This document shows, piece after piece, positions 1 to 58,675 of a stretch of 64,000 bases of DNA. The notes beneath the pieces are model-generated. The model worked only from the letters and a program-made list of their open reading frames with translations, was not told the DNA's origin and searched no databases. The position numbers and the translations under genes are program-made. Position 1 is the first letter of the stretch; every line of letters begins with the position of its first letter. The stretch comes from Chiloscyllium plagiosum. Taxonomy: Eukaryota. Where the stretch lies: contig NC_057719.1 in the NCBI RefSeq assembly GCF_004010195.1, forward strand, positions 18,257,438 to 18,321,437, given 5' to 3'.

Positions 1-905
1 TATGCTTCCTTCTTTTTCTTAATCAAACCCTCAATTTCTTTAGTCATCCAGCATTCCCTATACCTATCAGCCTTCCCTTTCACCCTGACAGGAATATACT
101 TTCTCTGGATTCTTGTTATCTCATTTCTGAAGGCTTCCCATTTTCCAGCCGTCCCTTTACCTGCGAACATCTGCCTCCAATCAGCTTTTGAAAGTTCTTG
201 CCTAATACTGTCAAAATTGGCCTTTCTCCAATTTAGAACTTCAACTTTTAGATCTGGTCTATCCTTTTCCATCACTATTTTAAATCGAATAGAATTATGG
301 TCGCTGGCCCCCCAAAGTGCTCCCCCACTGATACCTCAGTCACCTGCCCTGCCTTATTTCCCAAGAGTAGGTCAAGTTTTGCACCTTCTCTAGTAGGTAC
401 ATCCACATACTGAATCAGAAAATTGTCTTGTACACATTTAAGAAATTCCTCTCCATCTAAACCTTTAACACTGTGGCAATCCCAGTCGATGTTTGGAAAG
501 TTAAAATCCCCTACCATAACCATCCTATTATTCTTACAGATAGCTGAGATTTCCTTACAAGTTTGTTTTTCAATTTCCCTCTGACTATTGGGGGATCTAT
601 AATATAATCCCAATAAGGTGATCATCCCTTTCTTATTTCTCAGTACCACCCAAATGTACTTTCGGGAATATCCTCCCTCAGCACAGCTGTAATGCTATTC
701 CTTATCAAAAATGCCACTCCCCCTCCTCTCTTGCCTCCCTTTCTATCCTTCCTGTACCATTTGTATCCTGGAACATTAAGCTGCCAGTCCTGCCCATCCC
801 TGAGCCATGTTTCCGTAATTGCTATGATATCCCAGTCCCATGTTTCTAACCATGCCCTGAGTTCATCTGCCTCCCCTGTTAGGCCCCTTTTCATTGAAAT
901 AAATC
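1..905 (-). mobile_element. CR1-clade (HER1-like) LINE, ORF2 N-terminal AP-endonuclease region, frameshifted, running off the left edge
   Basis: Minus ORFs 640..894 and 275..649 give APE motifs: ELRAWLETWDWDIIAITETWL, RKDRKGGKRGGGVAFLI, GLYYRSPNS, MVGDFNFPNIDW, PTREGAKLDLLLGN. Confidence 0.95.
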
Positions 906-3263
906 TCTTGGTTGGAGAACGTTTTGGTAATAGTGATCACAACTCCCTGACTTTTACAATAGTCAAGGAGAGGGATAGGAGCAGACAGTATGGGAAAGAA
1001 TTTAGTTGGGGGGAGGGTGGATTACAATGCTATTTAGGCAGGAACTGTGGAGCATAAATTGGAGGCAGATATTCTCAGGGAAATGCACGACAGAAATGTG
1101 AAGGTTGTTGAGGGAGTACTTGCTGCAAGTGTTGGATAAGTTTGTCCCTCTGAGGCAAGGAAGGGGTGGTAGGGTGAAGAATTCTTGGATGGCATGAAGG
1201 AGATGTGGAACACCTAGTCAAGAGGAAGAAGGAAGGTTACTAAAGGTTGAGGAAGCAAGTATCAGACAGAACCTTAGGGGATTACAAGGTAGCCAGGAAG
1301 GAACTGAAGAATGGATTTAGGAGAGCTAGAAGGGGGCATGAGAAAGCTTTAGTGGATAGGATTAAGAAAAACCCTAAGGCGTTCTACACTTATGTGAGGA
1401 ACAAGAGGATGGCCAGAGTGAGGGTAGGGCTGATCAGGGTTAGTAGAGGGAACTTGTGCCTGGAGTTGGAGAAGGTAGAGGAGGTCCCTAATGAATACTT
1501 TGCTTTAGTATTCTTGGCTGAGGGGGACTTTGACATATTTGAGGACAGCTAGAAACAGACTGATATGCTAGAACAGTTTGATGTTAGGAAAGAGAATATG
1601 CTGAAACTTTTGAAAAACATAATGGTAGACAAATTCCCTGGGCCAGATGGGATATACCCTGGGTTACTATAGGAAGTGAGGGAAGAGATTGCTGTGCCTT
1701 TGGCGATGATCTTTGCATCCTCACTGTCCATTGGAGTAGTGCCAGATGGTTGGAGGGTGGCAAATGTTATTCCCTTGTTCAAGAAAGGGAATAAGAATAA
1801 TCCTGGGAATTACAGACCAGTCAGTCTTACATCAGCAGTGGGTAAAGTATTGGAGAGGATTCTAAAAGGCAGAATTTATGATTACTTGGAAAACTATAGT
1901 TGATTGAGATAGTCTTTATGGCTTTATGAGGGGCAGGTCATGCCTCACAAGTCTTATTGAATTCTTTGAGGATGTGACAAAACATATTGTAGAGCAGTGA
2001 ATGTGGTGTACATGGATCTTAGCAAGGCGTTTGATAAGGACCCCTTTCAGAAAGTAAGAAGGCATGAGATACAGGGAAATTTGGCTGCCTGGATACAGAA
2101 TTGCCTGGCCCATAGAAGACAGAGGGTGATTGGAGATGAAAAGTATTCAGCCTGGTGCTTGGTGACCAGTGGTGTTCTCCAGGGATCTGCTCTTTGTGAT
2201 TTTTATAAATGACTTGGATGAGAAAGTGGAAGGGTGGGTGAATACATTTTCCAATGACACAAAGGTTGGTGGAGTGGTGGATAGTGTGGAAGGCTGTTAA
2301 GTATTCAGCCTGGTGCTTGGTGACCAGTGGTGTTCTCCAGGGATCTGCTCTTTGTGATTTTTATAAATGACTTGGATGAGAAAGTGGAAGGGTGGGTGAA
2401 TACATTTGCCAATGACACAAAGGTGGGTGGAGTGGTGGATAGTGTGGAAGGCTGTTGTAGGTTGCAATGAGACATTGATAGGATGCAGAACGGGGCTGAT
2501 AAGAGGCATTTGGATTCAACCTGGAAAAGTGTGAAGTGATTCACTTTGGAAGGTTGAATTTGAATGCAGAATACTGGCTTAAAGGCAGGATCCTTGGCAG
2601 TGTGGAGGAACTGAGGGATCTTGGGGTCCATGTCCATAGATCCCTCAAAGTTGCCACCCAGGTTGATAGGGTTGTAAAGAAGGCATATAGTGTCTTGACT
2701 TTAATTAGTGGGGGATTGAGTTTAAGAGCCGCGACTGTGAACAGTTCTGGTCGCCTCATTAAAGGAAGAATGTGGAAGCTTTAGATACAGTGCAGAGGAG
2801 ATTTACCAGGATGCTGCCTGGACAGGAGGGCATGTCTTATGAAGAAAAGTTGAGGGAACTAAGGCTTTTCTCATTGAAGCAAAGAAGGATGAGAGGTGAC
2901 TTGATAGAGGTATATAGAATGATGAGAGGCTTAGAAAAGTGGATATCTGAGGCTTTTTCCCAGGACGGAAATGGCTATTATGAGGAGGCATAATTTTCTG
3001 GTGATAAGAGGAAGGTTTAGGGGACATGTCCAGGGTAGGTTCTTTACACAGAGAGCAGTGGGTGTGTGGAATGCATTGCCAGCAGTGATAGTAAAGTCAA
3101 ATATATTAGGGATATTTAAGTGACTCTTGGATAGGCACATGGATGATAGTAAAATGTAAGGTATGTAGGTTAGTTTGATCTTCGAGTCGGATTAAAGGTT
3201 AGAACACAGTCAAGGACTGAAGGACCTGTACTGTACTGTGCTGTACTGTTCTATATTCTATGT
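906..3263 (+). mobile_element. Decayed CR1 LINE: end of endonuclease, RT and 3' UTR with microsatellite tail
   Basis: Fragments VGERFGNSDHNSL, IKKNPKAFYTYV, WRVANVIPLFKKGNKNNPGNYRPVSLTS, VVYMDLSKAFDK, FANDTK (from FADDTK) and VQRRFTRMLPG, with many stops. Ends in (ctgta)n/ttctat. Confidence 0.95.
2141..2456 (+). repeat. 158-bp tandem duplication inside the CR1 RT region
   Basis: aagtattcagcc...gaaggctgtt occurs at 2141-2298 and 2299-2456, with 2 substitutions seen. Confidence 0.95.
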
Positions 3264-5159: not shown

Positions 5160-5777
5160 TTGCATTCAGTACTGGAATTGGGAGGTCATGTTGTGGCTGT
5201 ACAGGACACTCTTTAGGCCACTTTTGGAATACTGTGTGCAATTCTGGTCTCCATCCTATAGGAATGATGTTGCAAAACTTGAAAGGGTTCAGAAAAGACT
5301 TACAAGGATGTTGCCAGGGTTGGAGAGTTTGACTACAGGGAGAGGCTGAATAGACTGGGGCTGTTTTCCCTGGAGCATCAGAGGCTGAGGGGTGACCTTA
5401 TAGAGGTTTATAAAATCAAGTGGGGCATGGATAGGGTAAGTAGACAAGGTCTTTTCCCTGGGGTAGGGGAATCCAAAACAAAAGGGCATAGGTTTAAGGT
5501 GAAAGGGGAAAGATTTCAAAGGGATCTAATGGACAAGTTTTTCATGCAAACGGTGGTGCATGTATGGAATGAGTTGCCAGAGGTAGTGGTGGAGGCTGGT
5601 ACATTTACAACATTTAAAAGACATCCAGATGGTTATATGAATAGGAAGGGTTTGGAGGGATATGGGTGAAGTGCTGGCAAATGGGACGAGATTAGGTTAG
5701 GATACCTGGTCGACATGGGTGAGTTGGACCGAAGGGTCTTTTTCGGTGCTGTACATCTCTATGACTCTATGACTCTA
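5160..5777 (+). mobile_element. CR1 (HER1-like) 3' fragment
   Basis: LYRTLFRPLLEYCVQFWSPSYRNDVAKLERVQKRLTRMLPG; tail ctctatgactctatgactcta. Confidence 0.93.
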
Positions 5778-10770: not shown

Positions 10771-11266
10771 CATAGGGCAGCATGACTGTTTTGAGATGTA
10801 AGCTGTTGTCACATCTTGTATCACTAAGATATTTCCCATATTCTACTCCCTATCTAAGAAGTCTTCTTCGTTATTATTTTTCTCGTGGATAATAAATGAT
10901 ACAGTGCAAAACTGCCAAACTGATCTGCAGTAACACCAATGCTGTGTCTACACGATTTTGAGATCATGTTTTTGGAACATGAATACCATATTGGCAATCT
11001 CAGTACTTAGACAGCTGAGTACAAATGAAGGGAGTGGAACAATGTTGCTTTGAAGTGATAGCAAGTATAAAGTTGAATGAGTTCTGTAAACCCCATACTC
11101 AGCTAAATTCCAGTGGGATCAGTGAGCACTGTTAATGAGTCAATGGCTTAGACATCAGTATTTTTACTAACAAAACAATTGAAATGTGTGGCATCTTCTC
11201 ACATCTGGACAGACACGACTAGTTGCCAGTAATTAAGTAATGTAGCACATTCAGAATGGTCCTGTA

Positions 11267-11481
11267 AAAAACAAAAGAACTGCCAATGCGAGAATTCAGA
11301 AACAAAATCAGAAATTGCTGGAAAATCTCAGTAGGTCTGGCAGCATCTGTGAAGAGAAATGAAAGTTAACTTTTCAGGTTTGGTGACACTTCCTCAGAAC
11401 TGTTCTGAAATGTTAACTTTGATTTGAGTTCACAGATGTTGCCAGACCTGCTGAGTTTTTTCCAGCAGCCTCTGTTTTTGT
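11267..11481. mobile_element. PLE-derived family A fold-back (inverted-repeat) element
   Basis: Arms cagaaattgctggaaaatctcagtaggtctggcagcatctgtgaa and ttcacagatgttgccagacctgctgagttttttccagcag; 17-bp TSD ttcagaatggtcctgta at 11250-11266 and 11482-11498. Confidence 0.85.
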
Positions 11482-11669
11482 TTCAGAATGGTCCTGTACT
11501 CAGGCCTATATGGTGGGTCCTCTTTCCTATAGACGTGGGTCCTTTTTCACTATAGATATACTCCTTGCCTTTTCCATTCAGGTGATAATTTGATGTTCTA
11601 GACTTCCTGAGCATTTTTAATTAAACTGTGTTTTCATCCCACTGAATTGAATAAAAATCCCAACACTTA

Positions 11670-16182: not shown

Positions 16183-16385
16183 ACTCCAGAGATGGAAATG
16201 TGTTGCTGGAAAAGCGCAGCAGGTCAGGCAGCATCTAGGGAACAGGAGAATCGACGTTTCGGGCATTAGCCCTTCTTGAGGCAAACGTGGGTACTGCAGT
16301 GGGTCCTACTCCTGATGAAGGGCTCCTGCCCAAAATGTCCATTTTACTGCTCCTCGGATGCTGCCTGACTTGCTGTGCTTTTCCA
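16183..16385. mobile_element. PLE-derived family C fold-back element with two decayed hammerheads
   Basis: Arms ~16204-16281 and ~16311-16388 are reverse complements; near-TSD gcattattg (16174-16182) / gcattactg (16386-16394). Confidence 0.8.
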
Positions 16386-17705
16386 GCATTACTGTAATCT
16401 GAGTTCAATCACTTCTAATTTTGATCCAAGCTCTTTGCTCAAGTTGCAACTGATGCAATATTGCAATTGGTATGTCAAGTACCCATGACACTGGGTCTGC
16501 AAAGTTATTGCAATTTTTGACACATTAATTAAGGAGAGACGTAGGAAAAATGGATGTGGTCTTTCTGCACTGTAACTTGAATTGGAATCCATATGATTCT
16601 GGAAAAAGTGTTATAAAGCCATAAAATATCATTTTAACTGGAAAAAAGATATTCATTATTCCAATTTGTGAGTGTAGACAATATAGATCTTTGTTCAATT
16701 TGTTTAAACACTTTCATACCCATCCTCACTTGCAAACATTCCAAGCAACAACCTGACATAGTGTAATAATAGTGTCATTAATAGTTTAAACTAAATCCTT
16801 TAGCTCGCAATAGGTTAATGTCTCAAAACTGGCTAATAAATGGGTATGAAACAATGAAAAAGATACTGCTTGGAGGCAAAATATGGGGGATGATGAAACA
16901 TAAAGGCATATAAAGGAGACAATCTACTTGCTAAAGGCTGACCAAGCATTCTGACTGATAGAGTCCTCTTAATTGCTAATAATTCTACCTTCCTTCATTA
17001 TATCTTACACCTTTGCCCTCTGATTCAATTACCAGTTACTGAGAAGTAAGAGAAAGACAATCGGTTTGCCACAATCTGACCATTGTTTAGTCTAGAGCTG
17101 TCACATGACCGAACATATCTGTATGACCATTTTACTGACCTGAACTCTTTTGCTAAATTGACTTCATCTGTTTATTCTTGGGACTATTCAACAAAGTGAC
17201 CTTGAAAATAATGTGCAGCCTTGCTAGTTAGTCTCTCATGTTATAAAGCGTACATTTCAAACTTTAAAGGGCTCTGCTTTTCTTTCCCACCAACAGGATA
17301 ACTGCTGTTTTTAGAAGAACGAGAAGCAATGGCAATTTGACCTGCTACTGTTTCAGAAGAAGTAGGGCTAAACCAGGAAGGAAACTGATTCTGAGGGAAT
17401 TTGGTACCCTCAATGGGAGAAAGACCCCACCCTGTTCAAGCAACAGCAGAACTGAGTACTTGGCTCAGGTAGGACTGTAAGCACCTCTAAATAGAACACC
17501 GATAATGACCAGACCAGGACTTTTGGCTAAAGATTAATTGCTTTTCTGAGATATTGGGCAGGTTCATTTTGAAGGCCAGGGAAGGCAGAAAGAAAGGTGA
17601 TGGTGGAGTGGGGTTGGGGGGAGGGGTCAATAATCAAAGGCTGGGCTGGGTGTGGTGGGAGACATGAGGTCCTTTCATGGTTTTGAGGAGAAAAGGTCCT
17701 TCTGA

Positions 17706-32757: not shown

Positions 32758-35555
32758 TGTCTCAATGTGTTGGTCTTTATCACTGGTTCCTGGTGTTCAG
32801 TTATGTATGGCTGCTCTTTTCTTCTATTTTTTTAGTTTCATCCTGTGTACCATGTGTGTCATTTTTTGATATGATACTCTTTTATTTTGTCTGTGTCATT
32901 ATTTTACATTTCTGCTCTTTCTCTTGCTATCTGCAGCTTATTGACAATTACTTATGGTCAGCTAAATTGAGCAATTCTGAGTCCAAGGAAGGCAATTTGA
33001 AAATCAAGGCATTGTGTCATCAGGAACTAATGCAGCAACAGTGGACTGCTTCAGCTGGTGTGAAGGAGGTAAGAAGGAAACCGTTGCTCTGAATTAAAAT
33101 GATGTTGATGAAAATTTATAAGAAAAAGTCAGCATGGTGTCCAGTCCAGTCTGGGGATATGAACTGATAACAATGTAAAGTTTTGATGCTTAACACCCAT
33201 TAAGAAGCCCAAACCAGATGGCGGTACATTTAATTTCTTCTTTTGTTAATGAACATACACATTGTCCAGGACAATGTTAAAGATGAGAAAGAAATTCTGC
33301 AATAGTTCCCCAGGTTGCCATTGCAACCCAGCTGGAACGCTGTTGGGAGTCCTTGATGGCACAGTACAAATGGTTGGTTTGAGTTACTCATGCTTTTTCT
33401 TTGATGATTCTACCAAAGTTACACTCTGAGAGTGCGTGGAAATTTGCAGAATATTCAGGTGCTGATCTCTAGCTTTTCAATCTCATCTTTGTTGTATTTG
33501 GAGATCTTTAGGAGGCTTGCAGCATAACCTGCAAGAAAGTAATGTTAGACTTGAAATAAAAAACAGCAGCAGATACAGATTTCCTCTGTGTGTGAATTCT
33601 CTGGGGCTGTCGCTGTAAGAGAACCTGTGCAGCAACAGGAAGAGCATGTGAAAATGTAATGAATATTGACAACACATTCCACATTGTAATGTAATATTAG
33701 TAAACTGGAAAGTCTATACAACATTAACCCAATGTCATCAATGACCAGGGTAAGATTGTTCAGTTCTCAGGTACTGGTATCACATTGCTAAAAAAAACAT
33801 CAACAACTTATAAAAAGCCACCAAAAGGTTTTCAGGACGTAGCAAGTCTCAAAACTTTGCAATCCAATTGTCTTCCTCCCAAACAACACTCTTTTTTAAT
33901 CGAATATGGGTTGAAATCACACTGTACACATTAGTAATGAATGTGTTAATATGCTGATATCAAATTCCTCTGTCTGCTATCTTAATGAGGTTTTAAACTG
34001 AATGGTTTATGCCAATTGTTGAGGCATTGTACTAAGGCACATGAGCAATGTAGCATGCTGTTTCCTAATATCAAGCAGCCTGAAGTTAACTCTGTGCATT
34101 TTATTTTTACAGGCATTGAATTTCTCAGCAGAACTTTCCAAAATTTTAATCACTAGAGGTTATGTTGTAGAGTAGGATTTTATTTCATCCTCTAAGAGAT
34201 GGAAGTGATAAAATGAGTGCGAAACACATGTCTTCTGGCAGTTCATAGAAGAATAGAAATTTACATTGGAACTTTCCTCTGGGCTTCTTGTGGTCGGGTG
34301 CCAGAGTCAGCAAATTTGTCAGAGGATTGTTGGAAATCCCTATGGCCTGGAAGGGATTTTAACACTATCCACCCAAGGGAAACCTAGGCTACTTACCTGT
34401 CAGAGAGGTGCCTGGATCCCACATAAATTAAAATAATTTAACCTTGAGCCTTTCTTAGTTTTCATAACCTCTATTATTAGTGGAACTGAGGTAGCCCCCT
34501 CTTAATAAATATATGTGAATGATTTAGCCTACAGGCACCTATCTTTCGAAAGCATGGACATGTGAGATTGGAAAAGTCTCAACTGTGCACAGCTCTTCCG
34601 TTATTTACCTCAATTTTGCAACAACAGAAGTTTTACAGTATATTATTTTAGGTTCTGAAGTAACAAAATCAATCTGGAGGACAATAGTAAATAGACATGT
34701 TATGGTGTGGGGTTGTTAAATGCAACTTCAAACGCATTTAGGAAGAGTATCACATCATCAGCATTTCCACAGCAAGGCATGGATTGCTGTAAATTCATCA
34801 AGCCTCAGAACTAAGCCAACTTATCATATATCAGAGTGGAGGAATAGCAGTTTTAAATACCCTGCCATTTCCAAATGACTCATTATGAGTTTAATAGAAG
34901 GACTTTCACACAATATCTGTCGGCTGGCCTGGAGCTGCTAGTGAAGACTATAGTGTTTGAAATATTACAATCATTGGGAGCCTAATCACATTTATTATTT
35001 TTTCCTTTTTGATGAGACTTAAATGAGCTGCATGTTCTATTTCTATTTAATGAAATGCAAATCAGGCTTTGTTCATTCCTCAAAAAAGCATACTTGAATT
35101 AATTGAGACAAATCACAAATCCAACCAACAGCACTTCCCTTAGCCGAGTCAATCTTTCCTGAAAGATCCTCTCTCCTCTTCCCATTTTGTTCTCTCTGAG
35201 AGTCAGCAAACTACAGGTAGGCTGTCCATCATGCCTATCATCATACCAGGCCTTTTCAAGGTTTTGACATCAGGCTGCAACTGAATGGAAACCCATTTAC
35301 TGCCTTACCTGAGTAGATGTGTGCACTTCGTACATGTTTTGTACAAAAGATTTTTTTTAACATTTCTCTTGAATATTGCTGGAAAATAAACATTTTTTCT
35401 GAAGCTTTTGTCTTGTTGCACTCGTGAGAAGCAGTGGAAAAAATGCCAAATCTCTAATGATCGCGATAATTTACAGCATAGGAAGAAAAGTATCCTGTCA
35501 TCATGTCATTGGATGCTTCAAGAAAAAGTGCAAGGCTCAAACATAATCCTTCTAT

Positions 35556-35777
35556 GGATGTAGGTTTGCTCAGTGAGCTGGAAGGTTCATCTTCAGGCGT
35601 TTCGTCGCCATTTTAGGTAACATCATCAGTGAGAGCCTCAGGAGCTTCATCCAGGGGCTCACTAAAGATGTCACCTAGTATGGTAACGAAACGTCAGAAA
35701 ATGAACCTTCCAGCTTTGCGAGCAAACTTACATCCAGAACCTGAACCTGAGCTACAAATCTTCTCAAAACTCGTGAT
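35556..35777. mobile_element. PLE-derived family D fold-back element with a hammerhead in each arm
   Basis: 79-bp arms at 35555-35633 and 35658-35736, 24-bp spacer, unpaired tail; degenerate TSD taatccttctat/tagtctttctat. Confidence 0.85.
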
Positions 35778-36972
35778 TAGTCTTTCTATTTCCATGCAAT
35801 GTGTCCACGTGTAGGAATATATGTCCCTTCTATTAAATGTAAATGAACCATGTTACAACCTTGACTGGTTGTTAACAAATCTGAAATTGGTTGATAACAA
35901 GTACTATTCCTAAAGTATGTATTTTTAATTAACTATTCAGATGTGTTACAACACACCTTTGGCGCAGGTGAGATTTGAACCCAGGTTTTCTGGTCCAGAG
36001 GTAGGGACATTTCCACTCCATAATAATGACCATCTAGTATTACTGTTAACAACACTAACAACTGAAATTAACTGGACTTATAGCTCCCATTGTTATCATG
36101 ACAACGCCTTGGCCGTTGAGAGTGGTCATGCCAACCACTCAGGAATCCTTTGCTCCTTAGTATATATTGTTGTGATTGTTTAAACATTGGCATTCTTATG
36201 TTTGTCCTGAAGAGTGCAAGCAAAATATCTCTCTTTTCAGCAGTAATCAAAACTTACTCATGAGCTCAAAAATGGAGGGATTACTCGACTCAACCAATAC
36301 CAATTTCAGTAGGGGATCACTAAGATCACTGTTACAGCTAATAAGCAAATGTTTTCTATTATGTCCTGTGAACAAGAGAGGCATTTTTAATTTTTAAAGA
36401 GTCTTGATTGTTCAGAAATATCACTGCTTGCACATGACATCATCTTAACATATATAACGTGCTTGCTTCGCCACAACTAATTGATGTTCATTTTGAGTGT
36501 CTCAGCTCCTTCGACTTGAAATCATTTTCTTCTGAACACAATTTCCACTGTAGTGTTTTGGTACAGAGCTATCATCATTGATATGATTTAGAAAGTTCAA
36601 CATTGCATCATTATTATTTCCTAAGAAATTCTGCTGTACAAGCTATACAAAAAGAGATGGACTGCCAGATTACCATAACTCAGATATTTATCACCTACTT
36701 GGACACGAGAGGTTAGACACCTTTGTTCACCATGAGTTAAAAGAAAACAGGTTATTATTTATTTTAATCACATATTTTAACCTGGTTTCTTGTTCTGTTT
36801 CCAGTGATTCAGCTTGTCTTCTTGCTGGCTATTGGCAAGAAATTAAAGCTGTGACATTCAAAACATGTCCTCCTACACATACATGTGGCTAATTTCTTGT
36901 AAAAACATTTGGCATGTCTGAAGCAAATAAAAATCCATACTTAGTCAACTCAAACCTTTAACATTTGTCCAA

Positions 36973-46000: not shown

Positions 46001-47407
46001 ATCAATCTGTTTGGATGTGTTATACCACACCTCTGGATAAGTTGGGTCTTGACCTCAGTCCATTCTGGCCCAGAGATAGAGTTACTAATTTAACCAATCT
46101 GTTATGACACATTTCTGCAACTATCATATGCTGAGGTGGGGCTCAAACCTGAACCTTCTGGCTTAGAGGTAGGGACAATATCAATGCTCAGGACCTTCTC
46201 TTATTGTCTGTATTATGTTTAATTAATAGTCATCATTCCACTTACATCATTCCTACCATGCTGCCTTTGCTTCCCATCCTCGGTCCCACATGATTCAGCA
46301 TCTATTCCATTTTGAGACTGAACATTGGAATCTGATCATTTTATTGGGTGACCAACTCAAATGGTAAAGTACTTTAAGTGTTCACTTTTGAAGGAACGAG
46401 TGCTCAATGAAATAACTTATCATTGCAGTAAATCTGCACTGATTTAAAATAAGGTCGTCTTGAACATATCCCAGTCTGCAATTAGCCTTTTTTGATGAAT
46501 TCACACTCGAGTACTTTAACTGAATACTCAACATATACTCAGCATATTAAAAGTGTAACAACAAGGAAATAACATATAATGTGTTGTACTGATCCTATCT
46601 ATTATGTAGTTTTTCTGTCATACCCACAATGATCCTTGTGTGTCTCAACTTGAAGCCAAGATATCGAGCTGCTAAGGATATATTGCCATTTGGTGTTTTG
46701 GTGCTGATGTGACAAAAGTTCCAATGGTTTTTACAACAGAATTTACTGCTGTTGAAATTAAATTGGATTAATGCATATGCTTGCGGTTCTTTGTGGGATT
46801 TTCAGCTGGGACCCAAGTATATCAAACCTTAATGAGATTTAAGGAGCGAACTCTGTTAAACTACAACAGAAGAATGGTCAAGTGTCTTAAAGGAATCATT
46901 TTTGAAAACTGCAAAATTCATCAGGCAGGTGGCTCTTTTGCCACCAACTACTTTTTAAAATAGAAAGTGCCTTATTGGTACAGTATATCAGTCTCACAAG
47001 TCATTTCTGGGTACAATGGCTCTGCACACAACACATGATGAAAAATGTTGCAAGGTTGAAGTGCAATTGGTGGGAGTGAGGATTCAAAGAGCTTTCCAGA
47101 AATAGGTAGTGCATTGTAAAACACATTGTAATGATATTATTCTATCATGAAGCCATGCTTTGCATATTCCTTAATATTTTTGCTCCAATTACTCCAAACA
47201 CTTAGCAATGTATGAGTGAAGACAATTTCATCATCAGTAAAAAGGAACATTTTTATATTTACTAATTTTGTGAAAGTTTTGCAATATTCATTAAGGACAA
47301 ACACCCTGTTGCCGTCATTGACTCAAAATTCCATGAAACTCTATGAGGCCGATATCCCGGCTGGATGAACTGACCAGATTTGGCAGTGCCCTGTTAAACT
47401 TTGTGAA

Positions 47408-47629
47408 AACCGAAAGAAGTGCAGAAGCTGTAAATCAGAAACAAAAACAGAACTTGCCAGAAAAGCTCAGCAGGCCTGGCAGCATCTGTGCAGAGAAATC
47501 AGAGTTGATGTTTCAGATCTGAATGACCCTTCTTCACAGCTGCCAGCTTTGAGGAAGGGTCACCTGACCCAAAACATTTACAGATGCTGCCAGAGCTACA
47601 GAGATTTTCCAGCACCCTGTGTTTTTGCA
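47408..47629. mobile_element. PLE-derived family A fold-back element
   Basis: Inverted arms; 15-bp TSD gttaaactttgtgaa (47393-47407, 47630-47644). Confidence 0.85.
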
Positions 47630-47648
47630 GTTAAACTTTGTGAAGTTA

Positions 47649-47804
47649 AAAAATCACACAATACCAGGTTATAATCCAACAAGTTTATTTGGAATCACTA
47701 GCTTTCAAAGCACTGCTTCTTCATCAGGTGGCTGGTATAACCTGGTATTGTGTGATTTTTCACTTTGTCCGCCCCAATCCAACACTGGCACCTCCACATC
47801 AATG
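47649..47804. mobile_element. PLE-derived family B fold-back element
   Basis: Arms aaaaatcacacaataccaggttata and tataacctggtattgtgtgattttt; 13-bp TSD ctttgtgaagtta (47636-47648, 47805-47817). Confidence 0.85.
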
Positions 47805-47897
47805 CTTTGTGAAGTTAGTTTGAACATTGTGTAATGAAAGAACATCCACCTACTTCGCTCTCTTTGTAAAATAGCCAAAACACGTTCTCCTTTTTGG

Positions 47898-48108
47898 ATA
47901 ATAAAATAAAATAAAGAACTGCAGATGCTGAAGATCTGAAACAAAATCAGAAATTGCTGGAGAAACTCTGCAAGTGTGGCAGCATCTGTGGAGAGAGAAA
48001 GCAGAGTTAACGTTCTGAAGAAGGTCAATGGATTGAAACACAAACTCTGCTTTCTCTCTACAGATGTTGCCAGACCTGCTGAGTTTCTCCAGCAATTTTT
48101 GATTTTGT
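47898..48108. mobile_element. PLE-derived family A fold-back element
   Basis: Inverted arms; 13-bp TSD ttctcctttttgg (47885-47897, 48109-48121). Confidence 0.88.
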
Positions 48109-48379
48109 TTCTCCTTTTTGGGAGTTCACTGCGATATATTTCAAATACCTAGTTTGTTTCGGAGCAATGGAGAGATGGCATAAATATGAAACAAGTTTAC
48201 CCATGTTGTTTAAAATATCTCCGCAATTATGATTGCCTATTCCAAGCTTTTCCCAGCTCTAGCTTCTAACAGATTCTGTGTGGTTTGTGTTTACTTTGCT
48301 CTGAATCTGCCTTATCAAAATTATCAAAAATCAAACATACTGGCAATGGATCAGTTCCCAAATTCACACCATCAAGCAT

Positions 48380-56126: not shown

Positions 56127-57061
56127 CAGATTGTGTTCATCAGATTCTCACACTGGGCAATAGGCTCCTTTCCCTCAGTGAAGCATTAAACATCAGCACA
56201 AACCAGTTGGACCACAAAGCCAGTCCTTATGCTATTACATGTACTGTTATGTCCTGTGCGCTTCAACATTTGGTGCAGTTTTTGGGATCAATTTTAACTT
56301 AACCCTCTTGTTAAAAGTCAGAAAGAGTGGAATATAATGATGGGTTTGCAACCTGGTCAAATTGCATTAAATGTGATAAATATTGGAGGGGGTGTGAAAC
56401 AGGTACTCTACCTGATCCCATGGGATTCCTGTCCTGCAAGTTAGGTCAAAATAACAACCACAATAAGATCACTTTAATATTGCTGTCCTTTGTCAATTCA
56501 CCCCATACTACGTGGGACTGTTGGACACAGATTGGATTAGAAGACATGGAAAGAGCCAAGTATTTTGACGAGTTGACAAATCCCTCTCCTGCTACTGAAT
56601 CTAAATGGTTCGAATTTAGCACACAAACTCTGCAGGCAGTTGAATGACTGGTAGAAGATGTCCTTAAAATATCCAGCATGTCTGTTAGAACCTGAATGAG
56701 AAGTATTGTTTCATGTTTCATGTGAGATTGTTCACAAGCAGAATTCTGGATAATGCTGCTTTGGCATATTTAAGATGGCTCCAAAGGGACAGGGTTTTTT
56801 GAGAATTGGAAGATTTTCAATGGGGTGTTGCTGTTTTCAGTGTTTATTTCATGTTCGTTTAATCCTTCAGGTAATGAATTATAAGAATTCACCCTCCAGA
56901 GATTCTTTGTAAGCATGGTGAATACAAAGGTTGGTTTTCCATTCTGTGTTTTCACTCCTGTTTGTTTATGCATACAAATTAAAACAGAGAAAATTAAAAT
57001 AACATAAATTTGATGCTTCACTAGCTTATGCTATCTGTTCCAAAACAATAAACTATCTTTA

Positions 57062-58675
57062 GTCAGGAGGGCAAAAAGGGGACATGAGATAGCTTTGGCA
57101 AATAGAATTAAGGAGAATCCAAAGAGTTTTTACAAGTACATTAAGGACAAAAGGGTAACTAGGGAGAGAATAGGGCCCCTCAAAGATCAGCAAAACGGCC
57201 TTTGTGTGGAGCCGCAGAAAATGGGGGAGATACTAAATGAGTATTTTGCATCAGTATTTACTGTGGAAAAGGATATGGAAGATATAGACTGTAGGGAAAT
57301 AGATGGTGACATCTTGCAAAATGTCCAGATTACAGAGGAGGAAGTGCTGGATGCTTTGAAATGGTTAAAGGTGCATAACTCCCCAGGACCTGATCAGGTG
57401 TACCCGAGAACTCTGTGGGAAGCTAGAGAAGTGATTGCTGGGCCTCTTGCTGAGATATTTGTATCATCGATAGTCACAGGTGAGGTGCCGAAAGACTGGA
57501 GGTTGGCAAACGTGGTGCCACTGCTTAAAAAGGGCGGTAAAGACAAGCCAGGGAAATATAGACCAGTGAGCTGACCTCAGTCGTGGGCAAGTTGTTGGAG
57601 GGAATCCTGAGGGACAAGATGNNNNNNNNNNNNNNNNNNNNNNNNNNNNNNNNNNNNNNNNNNNNNNNNNNNNNNNNNNNNNNNNNNNNNNNNNNNNNNN
57701 NNNNNNNNNNNNNNNNNNNNNNNNNNNNNNNNNNNNNNNNNNNNNNNNNNNNNNNNNNNNNNNNNNNNNNNNNNNNNNNNNNNNNNNNNNNNNNNNNNNN
57801 NNNNNNNNNNNNNNNNNNNNNNNNNNNNNNNNNNNNNNNNNNNNNNNNNNNNNNNNNNNNNNNNNNNNNNNNNNNNNNNNNNNNNNNNNNNNNNNNNNNN
57901 NNNNNNNNNNNNNNNNNNNNNNNNNNNNNNNNNNNNNNNNNNNNNNNNNNNNNNNNNNNNNNNNNNNNNNNNNNNNNNNNNNNNNNNNNNNNNNNNNNNN
58001 NNNNNNNNNNNNNNNNNNNNNNNNNNNNNNNNNNNNNNNNNNNNNNNNNNNNNNNNNNNNNNNNNNNNNNNNNNNNNNNNNNNNNNNNNNNNNNNNNNNN
58101 NNNNNNNNNNNNNNNNNNNNNNNNNNNNNNNNNNNNNNNNNNNNNNNNNNNNNNNNNNNNNNNNNNNNNNNNNNNNNNNNNNNNNNNNNNNNNNNNNNNN
58201 NNNNNNNNNNNNNNNNNNNNNNNNNNNNNNNNNNNNNNNNNNNNNNNNNNNNNNNNNNNNNNNNNNNNNNNNNNNNNNNNNNNNNNNNNNNNNNNNNNNN
58301 NNNNNNNNNNNNNNNNNNNNNNNNNNNNNNNNNNNNNNNNNNNNNNNNNNNNNNNNNNNNNNNNNNNNNNNNNNNNNNNNNNNNNNNNNNNNNNNNNNNN
58401 NNNNNNNNNNNNNNNNNNNNNNNNNNNNNNNNNNNNNNNNNNNNNNNNNNNNNNNNNNNNNNNNNNNNNNNNNNNNNNNNNNNNNNNNNNNNNNNNNNNN
58501 NNTTGCAACATTTAAGAGGCATTTGGATGGGTATATGAATAGGAAGGGTTTGGAGGGATATGGGCCAGATGCTGGCAGGTGGGACTAGATTGGGTTGGGA
58601 TATCTGGTTGGCATGGACGGGTTGCACCGAAGGGTCTGTTTCCATACTGTACATCTCTATGACTCTATGACTCTA
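57062..58675 (+). mobile_element. Young 5'-truncated CR1 (HER1-like) LINE spanning an N gap
   Basis: ORF 57095..57574 IKENPKSFYKYIK...SPGPDQVYPRTLWEAREVIAGPLAEIF...WRLANVVPLLKKGGKDKPGKYRPVS; tail ctctatgactctatgactcta. Confidence 0.95.

Follow-up and report, generated by a model that had tools for sequence, protein, structure and literature searches.

The inverted repeat at positions 35544–35789 of the window (the whole 64,000-nucleotide stretch of Chiloscyllium plagiosum contig NC_057719.1 analyzed here) is very probably a dead-on-arrival insertion of the hammerhead-bearing pLTR end of an EN+ PLE, a member of a family present in great abundance in a shark-type genome. The unit consists of two 5'-truncated copies of one element end, joined head to head so that the 3' ends point away from the junction, of which one stops at the proximal terminus and the other runs ~37 nt on, and a probable 12-bp target-site duplication (TSD) bounds the whole (table 1). 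It is an ordinary old Penelope stub whose insertion pattern has already been described, and the locus probably does nothing today.

Layout and Boundaries of the Fold-Back Unit

The two 79-bp inverted arms reported in the initial annotation of this DNA (35555–35633 and 35658–35736) are real: they align as reverse complements at 64 of 79 positions, match one another in a within-window blastn comparison at E 2.5e-32 and, folded as the annotation had suggested, give a unit (MFE −117.3 kcal/mol, z −12.8) whose stability none of 200 shuffles equaled. What had been taken for a 24-bp spacer between them (35634–35657) is instead element sequence, as the arm alignment runs through this region, interrupted in the left arm by 2 inserted nt, until the arms abut at 35643/35644. 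The true arms hence measure ~89 and ~93 bp and are directly joined, and in the fold the hairpin is closed at this junction by a 3-bp stem and a 6-nt loop. The proposal that an inverted, truncated pLTR with a tail fits PLE integration is upheld by the alignment, by the contig termini and by the layout described for such insertions in PMC3846280 and PMC8557442.

The direct repeat proposed as the flanking duplication matches at 10 of 12 positions; it is imperfect and lies ~3 nt off the family end, and no empty site was seen. With the ends anchored near the given boundaries, random placements were as good in 0, 2, 12 and 38 of 978 cases at slack 0, 2, 4 and 8, respectively. In an unanchored wide search 16 of 40 random sites scored equally, so the TSD rests on the boundaries, and these are backed independently by the loose ends of family contigs. 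The family end lies near 35773–35774, with ~3 nt (35775–35777) between it and the right TSD copy; in the loose-end consensus of other copies, TAA follows the family end immediately and gives way to an AT-rich flank.

Table 1. Features of the fold-back insertion (window coordinates)
Feature	Position	Strand	Basis
Left copy of probable 12-bp TSD, begins TAA; last base overlaps first aligned arm base	35544..35555	+	10/12 against 35778–35789
Left arm, 5'-truncated pLTR end, no tail, ends at proximal terminus	35555..35643	-	Alignment through center; contig loose ends
Minimal type I hammerhead, decayed: U16.1 missing (35597), mismatch in stem II (35607) and altered loop II (35612–35613), with core box and GAAA preserved	35592..35633	-	Motif reading, alignment, family majority
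Head-to-head inversion junction	35643..35644	.	Arm alignment, fold, 5/21 listed family pieces starting there
Right arm, 5'-truncated pLTR end	35644..35736	+	Alignment, family contigs
Minimal type I hammerhead, decayed: G5 (35664) and the first base of stem I past the cut (35696) missing, mismatch in stem II (35672/35685)	35658..35699	+	Motif reading, alignment, family majority
Stop-free 36-codon frame, ATG at stem II start, through arm and tail	35668..35775	+	ORF reading; open by chance in 2915/19607 random windows
One-sided tail of ~37–38 nt, A/C-rich (24/38), between two family termini	35737..35774	+	Contig loose ends; composition
Right copy of probable TSD, ~3 nt past family end	35778..35789	+	10/12 against left copy

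Apart from two chance matches of 17–23 nt, the 64-kb window holds no further copy of this family. It does hold five further fold-backs of other hammerhead families, each with a different center. Four of the five have perfect TSDs of 13–16 bp that outscore each of 40 random controls (the best of which scored 10), and the same four carry one-sided extensions of 27–44 nt; the fold-back at 16204–16388, without a convincing TSD, was excluded when TSDs and tails were counted. All five TSD-bounded fold-backs of the window carry their tail on exactly one side.

Hammerhead Decay and Family Abundance

Both hammerhead parsings given in the annotation agree with the sequence letter for letter, the nominal plus-arm cut falling after 35695. 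The single core losses that it assigned, U16.1 in the minus arm and G5 in the plus arm, are confirmed, but each arm holds further damage: an A–C mismatch in stem II of the minus arm (35607) and, in the plus arm, a C–A mismatch in stem II (35672/35685) together with the lost stem I base at 35696. With G5 gone from one and U16.1 from the other, neither motif alone keeps the full set of C3–A9, G12–A15.1 and U16.1–H17. The family majority in DNA runs of three organisms restores G5 (G in 74–84% of aligned family depth at 35664), U16.1 (its letter in 85–89% at 35597), the pairing of stem II and the missing base of stem I, and the two core losses are private decay of a copy whose family majority is intact. 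The claim that the two arms rebuild an intact ribozyme hence holds for the ancestral state of the family but is not supported as to function: the arms sit on opposite strands, and the RNAs made from them anneal into sense–antisense duplexes.

Each of the 15 mismatches between the arms involves a position listed as variable in the family (40 of 94 letter rows are listed), and in none of them are both partners listed. Transitions account for 10 and transversions for 5, G–U-forming mismatches number five on the plus and five on the minus strand, and among the arm mismatches we saw neither a compensatory change nor a strand bias in those compatible with wobble. Private changes amount to ~7 per arm, indicating that both arms are of similar age; N7 differs between them, the alternative letter occupying 20–29% of family depth. 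Rfam models, the hammerhead included, gave no match at gathering score over the 64-kb window, and five subthreshold matches at the locus (two miRNA and three snoRNA, the miRNA reaching 29 bits against a gathering score of 90 bits) were rejected. A scan for bacterial promoters and terminators, irrelevant here, merely recovered stem II.

Other genomic copies, whose absence the annotation regarded as fatal to its reading, are plentiful: 8661, 10212 and 12780 contigs from the DNA runs of the three organisms align to a 611-base stretch, and summed depth (summed word depth is not copy number) climbs to 1e5–1e6 on the element against ~100 or less on the flanks. The 35544–35789 locus itself is, judging from the contigs, probably common to the three organisms, and patterns of the element found no match in metagenome contigs or in viral contigs. 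Loose ends occur before 35555 in 305, 309 and 336 contigs and at 35769–35773 in 882, 830 and 948 contigs (four listed rows per run; 24 listed of 836 loose-end rows), such that the family has two preferred ends separated by ~37 nt, as is characteristic of the Penelope tail. Toward the 5' side depth drops to ~1%, indicating a dispersed family of mostly 5'-truncated copies.

Depth at the center of the fold-back is 1.15, 0.54 and 0.48% of peak in the three runs, and none of 24 pieces crosses the junction among the matches listed of 32133, the longest ones being retained. Five of 21 listed family pieces start at 35643–35644 and no listed piece starts earlier; old copies among the listed pieces span 120–130 nt with ~20 differences. 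The listed joints (15 of 68) are all different, 14 of the 15 occurring in a single contig per run, and most are weak, matching at 80% over fewer than 30 letters on their shorter side. The low center depth, the lack of junction-crossing pieces and the differing joints together indicate that the inversion formed anew at each insertion, and the same three results contradict an amplified unit with a fixed spacer, which the annotation had put forward as one of two outcomes to be checked; Logan contigs break in repeats, such that young identical fold-backs may be missed.

Published Penelope-Like Insertions and the Origin of the Inversion

A head-to-head inverted pLTR with a one-sided tail and a TSD has already been published for PLEs (PMC3846280; PMC8557442), although PMC8557442 still describes as undefined the way in which these elements build their inverted copies and their tails. 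In the EN+ PLE insertions described by Arkhipova et al. (2013, PMC3846280) and Craig et al. (2021, PMC8557442), a 5'-truncated inverted pLTR likewise abuts another copy, the tail (30–40 bp in PLEs) lies on one side only, and the first ORF codons lie within the pLTR and tail; the TSDs given there are 8–10 bp, against 12 bp here, and unlike that layout, described on longer copies, both arms here are truncated within the pLTR, without RT/EN sequence. Very short 5'-truncated PLE insertions are reported to be common (PMC9977147). In the Poseidon element PAc of Anolis carolinensis (Frangieh et al. 2024, PMC11167929), which has two adjacent RT start sites, the ORF starts at stem II, the cut lies 26 bp on and RT starts at 111–118; our unit has its ATG at the stem II start, its nominal cut at +28 and its distal end at +106/107, and shares with PAc an A/C-rich element end, a tail between two termini and an AT-rich target, a likeness that, as with the clade assignment, is one of geometry.

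The hammerheads resemble the minimal hammerheads (min-HHR) of metazoan PLEs (Cervera and De la Pena 2014, PMC4209133) in their type I minimal core, the extra base between A9 and 10.1, G10.1–C11.1, the long stem II and the palindromic 15.2–16.2 region, and pairs of opposite-strand motifs 100–700 bp apart have already been reported from Schistosoma (PMC4209133). They differ from these in that both cores are mutated and stem II has 6 bp, and, facing away from each other within one hairpin, they are unable to form the tandem dimer. Non-LTR retrozymes, reported in one chondrichthyan (Li, Clavereau and Pollet 2026, bioRxiv 10.64898/2026.07.22.740005), are similarly noncoding, PLE-pLTR-related and equipped with a type I hammerhead; we rejected this identity, as retrozymes are described there as head-to-tail tandem arrays in which two or more consecutive units carry a complete hammerhead, and here the copies stand head to head with none complete.

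Judging only from its position, the 35668–35775 frame may correspond to the N-terminal part of the ORF in the parent element. A protein search with a 48-aa frame returned two candidates, none at an E of 10 or better, and the sole phmmer match of the 36-aa frame, P0002, was discarded as a repetitive false positive (11 matching repeats at 20.4 bits each). No Pfam match was found for the 120 ORFs of at least 62 aa scanned between 18 and 52 kb (of 247 ORFs), and no RT or GIY-YIG ORF linked to the family emerged from the protein searches of frames and this Pfam scan. The hammerhead, tail and geometry are what suggest PLE membership.

Under the reading that we favor, AT-rich target DNA would have been nicked at staggered positions by the parent's GIY-YIG endonuclease, reverse transcription would have started inside the RNA at two adjacent sites of the kind known from anole Poseidon, and it would have halted after ~90–130 nt, just upstream of the hammerhead. 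The second arm would have been made in the same event, by priming at the second nick or by self-priming, such that the inversion was built at insertion and not carried in by a pre-formed mini-element; both hammerheads would have arrived intact as passengers and then decayed neutrally by ~9% per arm. We propose, tentatively and as less likely than not, that each arm was copied from an RNA molecule of its own, with a dimer of the PLE protein priming at both nicks, one subunit at the distal and the other at the proximal start site, and the truncated cDNAs being joined head to head. The N7 difference between the arms and the strictly one-sided tails of the TSD-bounded fold-backs hint at two templates, as does the anole enzyme, a predicted dimer that can extend either strand (PMC11167929).

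A palindromic mini-element that already existed before insertion (either MITE-like or a non-autonomous PLE whose center is fixed) and was amplified as a whole fold-back would also have inverted termini and a TSD, and contig assemblies can break inside young hairpin repeats and so hide such copies; the near-empty center, the listed pieces that all stop short of it, the differing joints, the one-sided tail and the window's TSDs of 12–16 bp nevertheless make it highly improbable. DNA transposons have short, fixed TSDs, unlike those of 12–16 bp here. That two members of the family inserted here independently, or that an inverted duplication arose later at the site, might be suspected from the 15 differences in 79 arm positions, the family-variable N7 among them, but a single TSD candidate surrounds the whole unit, the private changes point to similar ages and the layout recurs five more times in 64 kb, and we regard either origin as extremely unlikely.

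Alone, the locus matters little, being one decayed copy among thousands with a published pattern, and the family may well be catalogued already. Its value is as a data point, since short TSD-bounded stubs record both cDNA ends and their junction in ~220 bp; if the arms were indeed written from two templates, shark genomes, with stubs of this kind in their thousands, would settle the choice between two-nick priming and the self-priming model already published. We found no paper devoted to such stubs in sharks in a literature search that covered few subscription papers.

Possible Hairpin RNA Role and Possible Complementation in Trans

As the annotation predicted, a transcript of either strand folds into a strong hairpin (−113.9 and −112.5 kcal/mol), in which the longest stacked run is 16 bp. 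One of 317 RNA reads was at least 99% alike to the locus, with none on the flanks, in a single polyA single-cell run of which ~2% was read and whose library type does not capture small RNAs; read ends are not listed as piling up in this fragmented library. Among the sequencing runs searched, none of RNA was listed as carrying the element. It is very unlikely that the locus is transcribed, that dicing of its hairpin yields small RNAs silencing the family, and that the copy is retained for that purpose. The hairpin on both strands, the probable sharing of the locus among three organisms and the antisense small RNAs of rotifer PLEs (PMC3846280) would fit such a role, but the mismatches show neither compensation nor strand bias and the stacked run reaches 16 bp at most, to which the single matching read, from a library blind to small RNAs, adds a weak point.

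It is scarcely credible that the defective arms complement each other in trans, minus-arm RNA giving C3–A9 and G12–A15.1 and plus-arm RNA giving U16.1–C17, in the manner of minimal hammerheads that act as dimers. Formally, what one core has lost the other still has, and minimal PLE hammerheads are thought to act as dimers (PMC4209133), but transcripts of both strands would be needed, and these form a perfect duplex of −451.7 kcal/mol, far below either monomer. The plus arm also lacks its first stem I base, and even intact minimal hammerheads cleave poorly in vitro. Isolated arms, when cofolded, yield an antisense duplex and no hammerhead, and forcing stem II in the plus transcript costs ~18 kcal/mol.

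The fold-back unit and its hammerheads

The fold-back element at 35544-35789 is a real feature, and the initial annotation correctly recognized it as PLE-type. Its arms (35555-35633 and 35658-35736) pair as reverse complements, with 64 of 79 positions matching, and the RNA fold of the whole unit is predicted at -117.3 kcal/mol, versus -58.3 +/- 4.6 in shuffles (n = 200). The 24 bp initially read as a spacer are element sequence: the arm alignment runs on through them with a 2-nt insertion, and the arms adjoin directly at 35643/35644. The direct repeat claimed as a TSD (35544-35555 / 35778-35789) does agree at 10 of 12 positions; however, it is a probable, unproven TSD, because 16 of 40 random sites score equally well in a wide search (with the search anchored near the boundaries, random placements equally good number 0, 2, 12, and 38 of 978 at slack 0, 2, 4, and 8).

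Both hammerhead readings (plus and minus arm) agree with the sequence, and neither arm holds a complete core; the intact ribozyme said to be reconstructed from the two arms is merely the ancestral state. For the two arms to complement each other formally, RNAs from both strands would be required; these favour a -451.7 kcal/mol duplex, and cofolding of isolated arms yields an antisense duplex. In a full-length transcript the hammerhead is predicted to lie buried inside the hairpin, since imposing stem II carries a penalty of about 18 kcal/mol. We find no sign of function for the unit.

Coordinates of the unit and of other hammerhead-bearing features (window positions)
Feature	Position	Remarks
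Fold-back unit	35544-35789
Left arm	35555-35643 (-)
Right arm	35644-35736 (+)
Tail	35737 to about 35774 (+)
Adjacent fold-backs, different hammerhead families	47393-47817	TSDs: first 47393-47407 / 47630-47644 (15/15), second 47636-47648 / 47805-47817 (13/13)
Third fold-back after that pair	47885-48121
Fold-back	11251-11498	perfect 16-bp TSD; centre a short palindrome
Single hammerhead stubs (examples)	7675, 14560, 32570, 42970, 48560, 52310, 54900, 56030

Family copies and the origin of the inversion

The stretch is present, whole or in part, in 20 runs from three organisms. We surveyed the family in 4 of 24 listed runs, aligning contigs or reads at 80% likeness. Aligned contigs numbered 8661, 10212, and 12780 in the DNA-type runs (organisms A, B, and C, respectively), and summed depth, which is not a copy number, reached 1e5-1e6 on the element versus at most about 100 in the flanks. 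One cluster of loose ends lies before 35555 (305, 309, and 336 contigs in A, B, and C, among the 24 rows listed of 836) and another behind 35769-35773 (at least 882, 830, and 948, from four listed rows per run, again 24 of 836); these clusters are two family termini about 37 nt apart. A target preference is suggested by TAA, which opens the left TSD copy and also lies past the family's distal end, where the consensus continues AT-rich; TAA could instead belong to the element.

The initial annotation asked whether the fold-back is amplified as a unit with a fixed spacer or made separately by each insertion; the contig data favour an inversion that arises afresh with every insertion. Over 35645-35665, depth amounts to 1.15, 0.54, and 0.48% of peak (organisms A, B, and C). 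Among 24 listed pieces of 32133 (longest retained), 21 span right arm and tail, starting at 35643-35660 (five at 35643-35644), and none crosses 35643/35644. Among the 15 joints listed out of 68 no two are alike: 11 are inter-arm skips, three are strand switches, and one is a step back, and 14 were seen in a single contig per run; most have a short side of <30 letters and are flagged weak, and contigs break within young repeats. The window's other short fold-backs (11294, 16204, 47442, 47649, 47938), all of other hammerhead-bearing families, point the same way: their five centres all differ, even among three of one family. Four of the five are flanked by perfect repeats of 13-16 bp, which outscore every one of 40 random controls (highest control score 10), and carry a one-sided extension of 27-44 nt; that at 16204 has no convincing TSD. 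The same junction test speaks against a MITE, as none of the 24 listed pieces crosses the centre and the 15 listed joints all differ.

In each arm the window and the family majority disagree at about 7 of 79 places (40 of 94 letter rows listed; at 35572 and 35728 the majority holds in some runs only). Both inactivating changes are private to the locus, since 74-84% of family depth carries G at 35664 and 85-89% carries the U16.1 letter at 35597; such calls are conservative, because best-fit placement of contigs biases shares towards the window's letters. The 15 arm mismatches comprise these 14 places plus hammerhead position N7; ten are transitions, five are wobble-compatible on each strand, and no pair has both partners among the listed rows. 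Decay is neutral and amounts to about 9% in each arm, several times more than the flanks differ between organisms (1.6-3.2%). At N7 (35625 / 35666; family-variable, 20-29%) the differing letters are a weak hint of different templates for the two arms.

Left-flank contigs of organisms B (4 differences in 251) and C (8 in 249) extend past 35555 and end 25 and 23 letters inside the left arm. The insertion is therefore likely, though only likely, present at the orthologous site in both, as these overlaps fall short of the 31-letter bridging rule; no empty-site joint occurs among the 15 listed of 68.

Classification and mechanism

The structure described as typical of Penelope (PMC3846280; also PMC8557442) has head-to-head inverted pLTRs (hammerhead-bearing PLE ends), a 31-bp tail on one side, and a 9-bp TSD; Schistosoma has minimal hammerheads on opposite strands 100-700 bp apart (PMC4209133). 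Retrozymes are excluded, as they need tandem complete units. By its geometry the unit is a probable Poseidon-like, PLE-derived stub.

In the anole, the Poseidon protein nicks AT-rich DNA and extends both strands; reverse transcription starts at two adjacent internal sites, which define the tail, and insertion in vitro does not require hammerhead activity (PMC11167929). The ORF of that element opens at stem II, with the cut 26 bp downstream and the RT start 111-118 nt in (PMC11167929); counted from an ATG at the stem II start, our unit has its nominal cut at +28, proximal end at +69, and distal end at +106/107. The 36-codon frame from that ATG is open, but 2915 of 19607 random windows are open too, and protein searches with it and with a 48-aa frame found no credible relative.

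We hypothesize that staggered nicks in target DNA would be followed by a pair of short cDNA arms that end at the two RT start sites and would join head-to-head and then decay. Arkhipova et al. (PMC3846280) ascribe such junctions to self-priming on an antisense template; alternatively, the second arm would come from priming at both nicks, and the present data fit either.

Expression and window setting

The RNA sample covered about 2% of one polyA single-cell run (X21), or 12.96 million records, from a library that is blind to small RNAs. Of 317 aligned reads, a single one reached 99% likeness; 15 fell at 95-99% and 301 below 95%. Family copies elsewhere are represented in RNA; in this sample we saw no sign of expression of this very locus, no reads on its flanks, and no pile-up of read ends among the rows listed. 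Family reads over 35561-35770 show a strand bias that is in most bins about 4- to 6-fold, which would reflect one element orientation, since it runs opposite ways on the inverted arms. Behind 35769, 25 loose-ended reads (agreement 0.54) open with an A run, and behind 35774 another 28 (agreement 0.95) point to a single expressed copy elsewhere. Upstream of 35656, 25 reads share a consensus (agreement 0.51), possibly more pLTR from a related subfamily, which may lead to the full-length element.

The window is eukaryotic, of 33-46% GC, and full of dispersed repeats, with no second copy of the unit's family in its 64 kb and no Pfam match among the 120 ORFs at 18-52 kb (of 247 in the window with at least 62 aa). 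Fragments at 275-3200, 5283-5669, 57014-57574, and elsewhere resemble LINE (CR1/L2-type) endonuclease and RT in their motifs, and we take 35950-36030 to resemble a SINE end. N bases total 1020, with runs near 14.2 and 57.6-58.5 kb, and a 158-bp direct duplication (2141-2456, 99% identity) may be an assembly artefact. Many single, non-inverted stubs of at least three other hammerhead families, mostly decayed, lie at 5970-56150. In the adjacent pair, the second fold-back inserted at the edge of the first, as shown by the overlap of its TSD with the first's right TSD copy. The right arm of the fold-back at 11251-11498 appears, past the centre, to be without hammerhead core and stem II, and that at 47938-48111 has its inversion junction inside the left arm's hammerhead, near the nominal cut site, with about 3 letters in common with the right-arm start.
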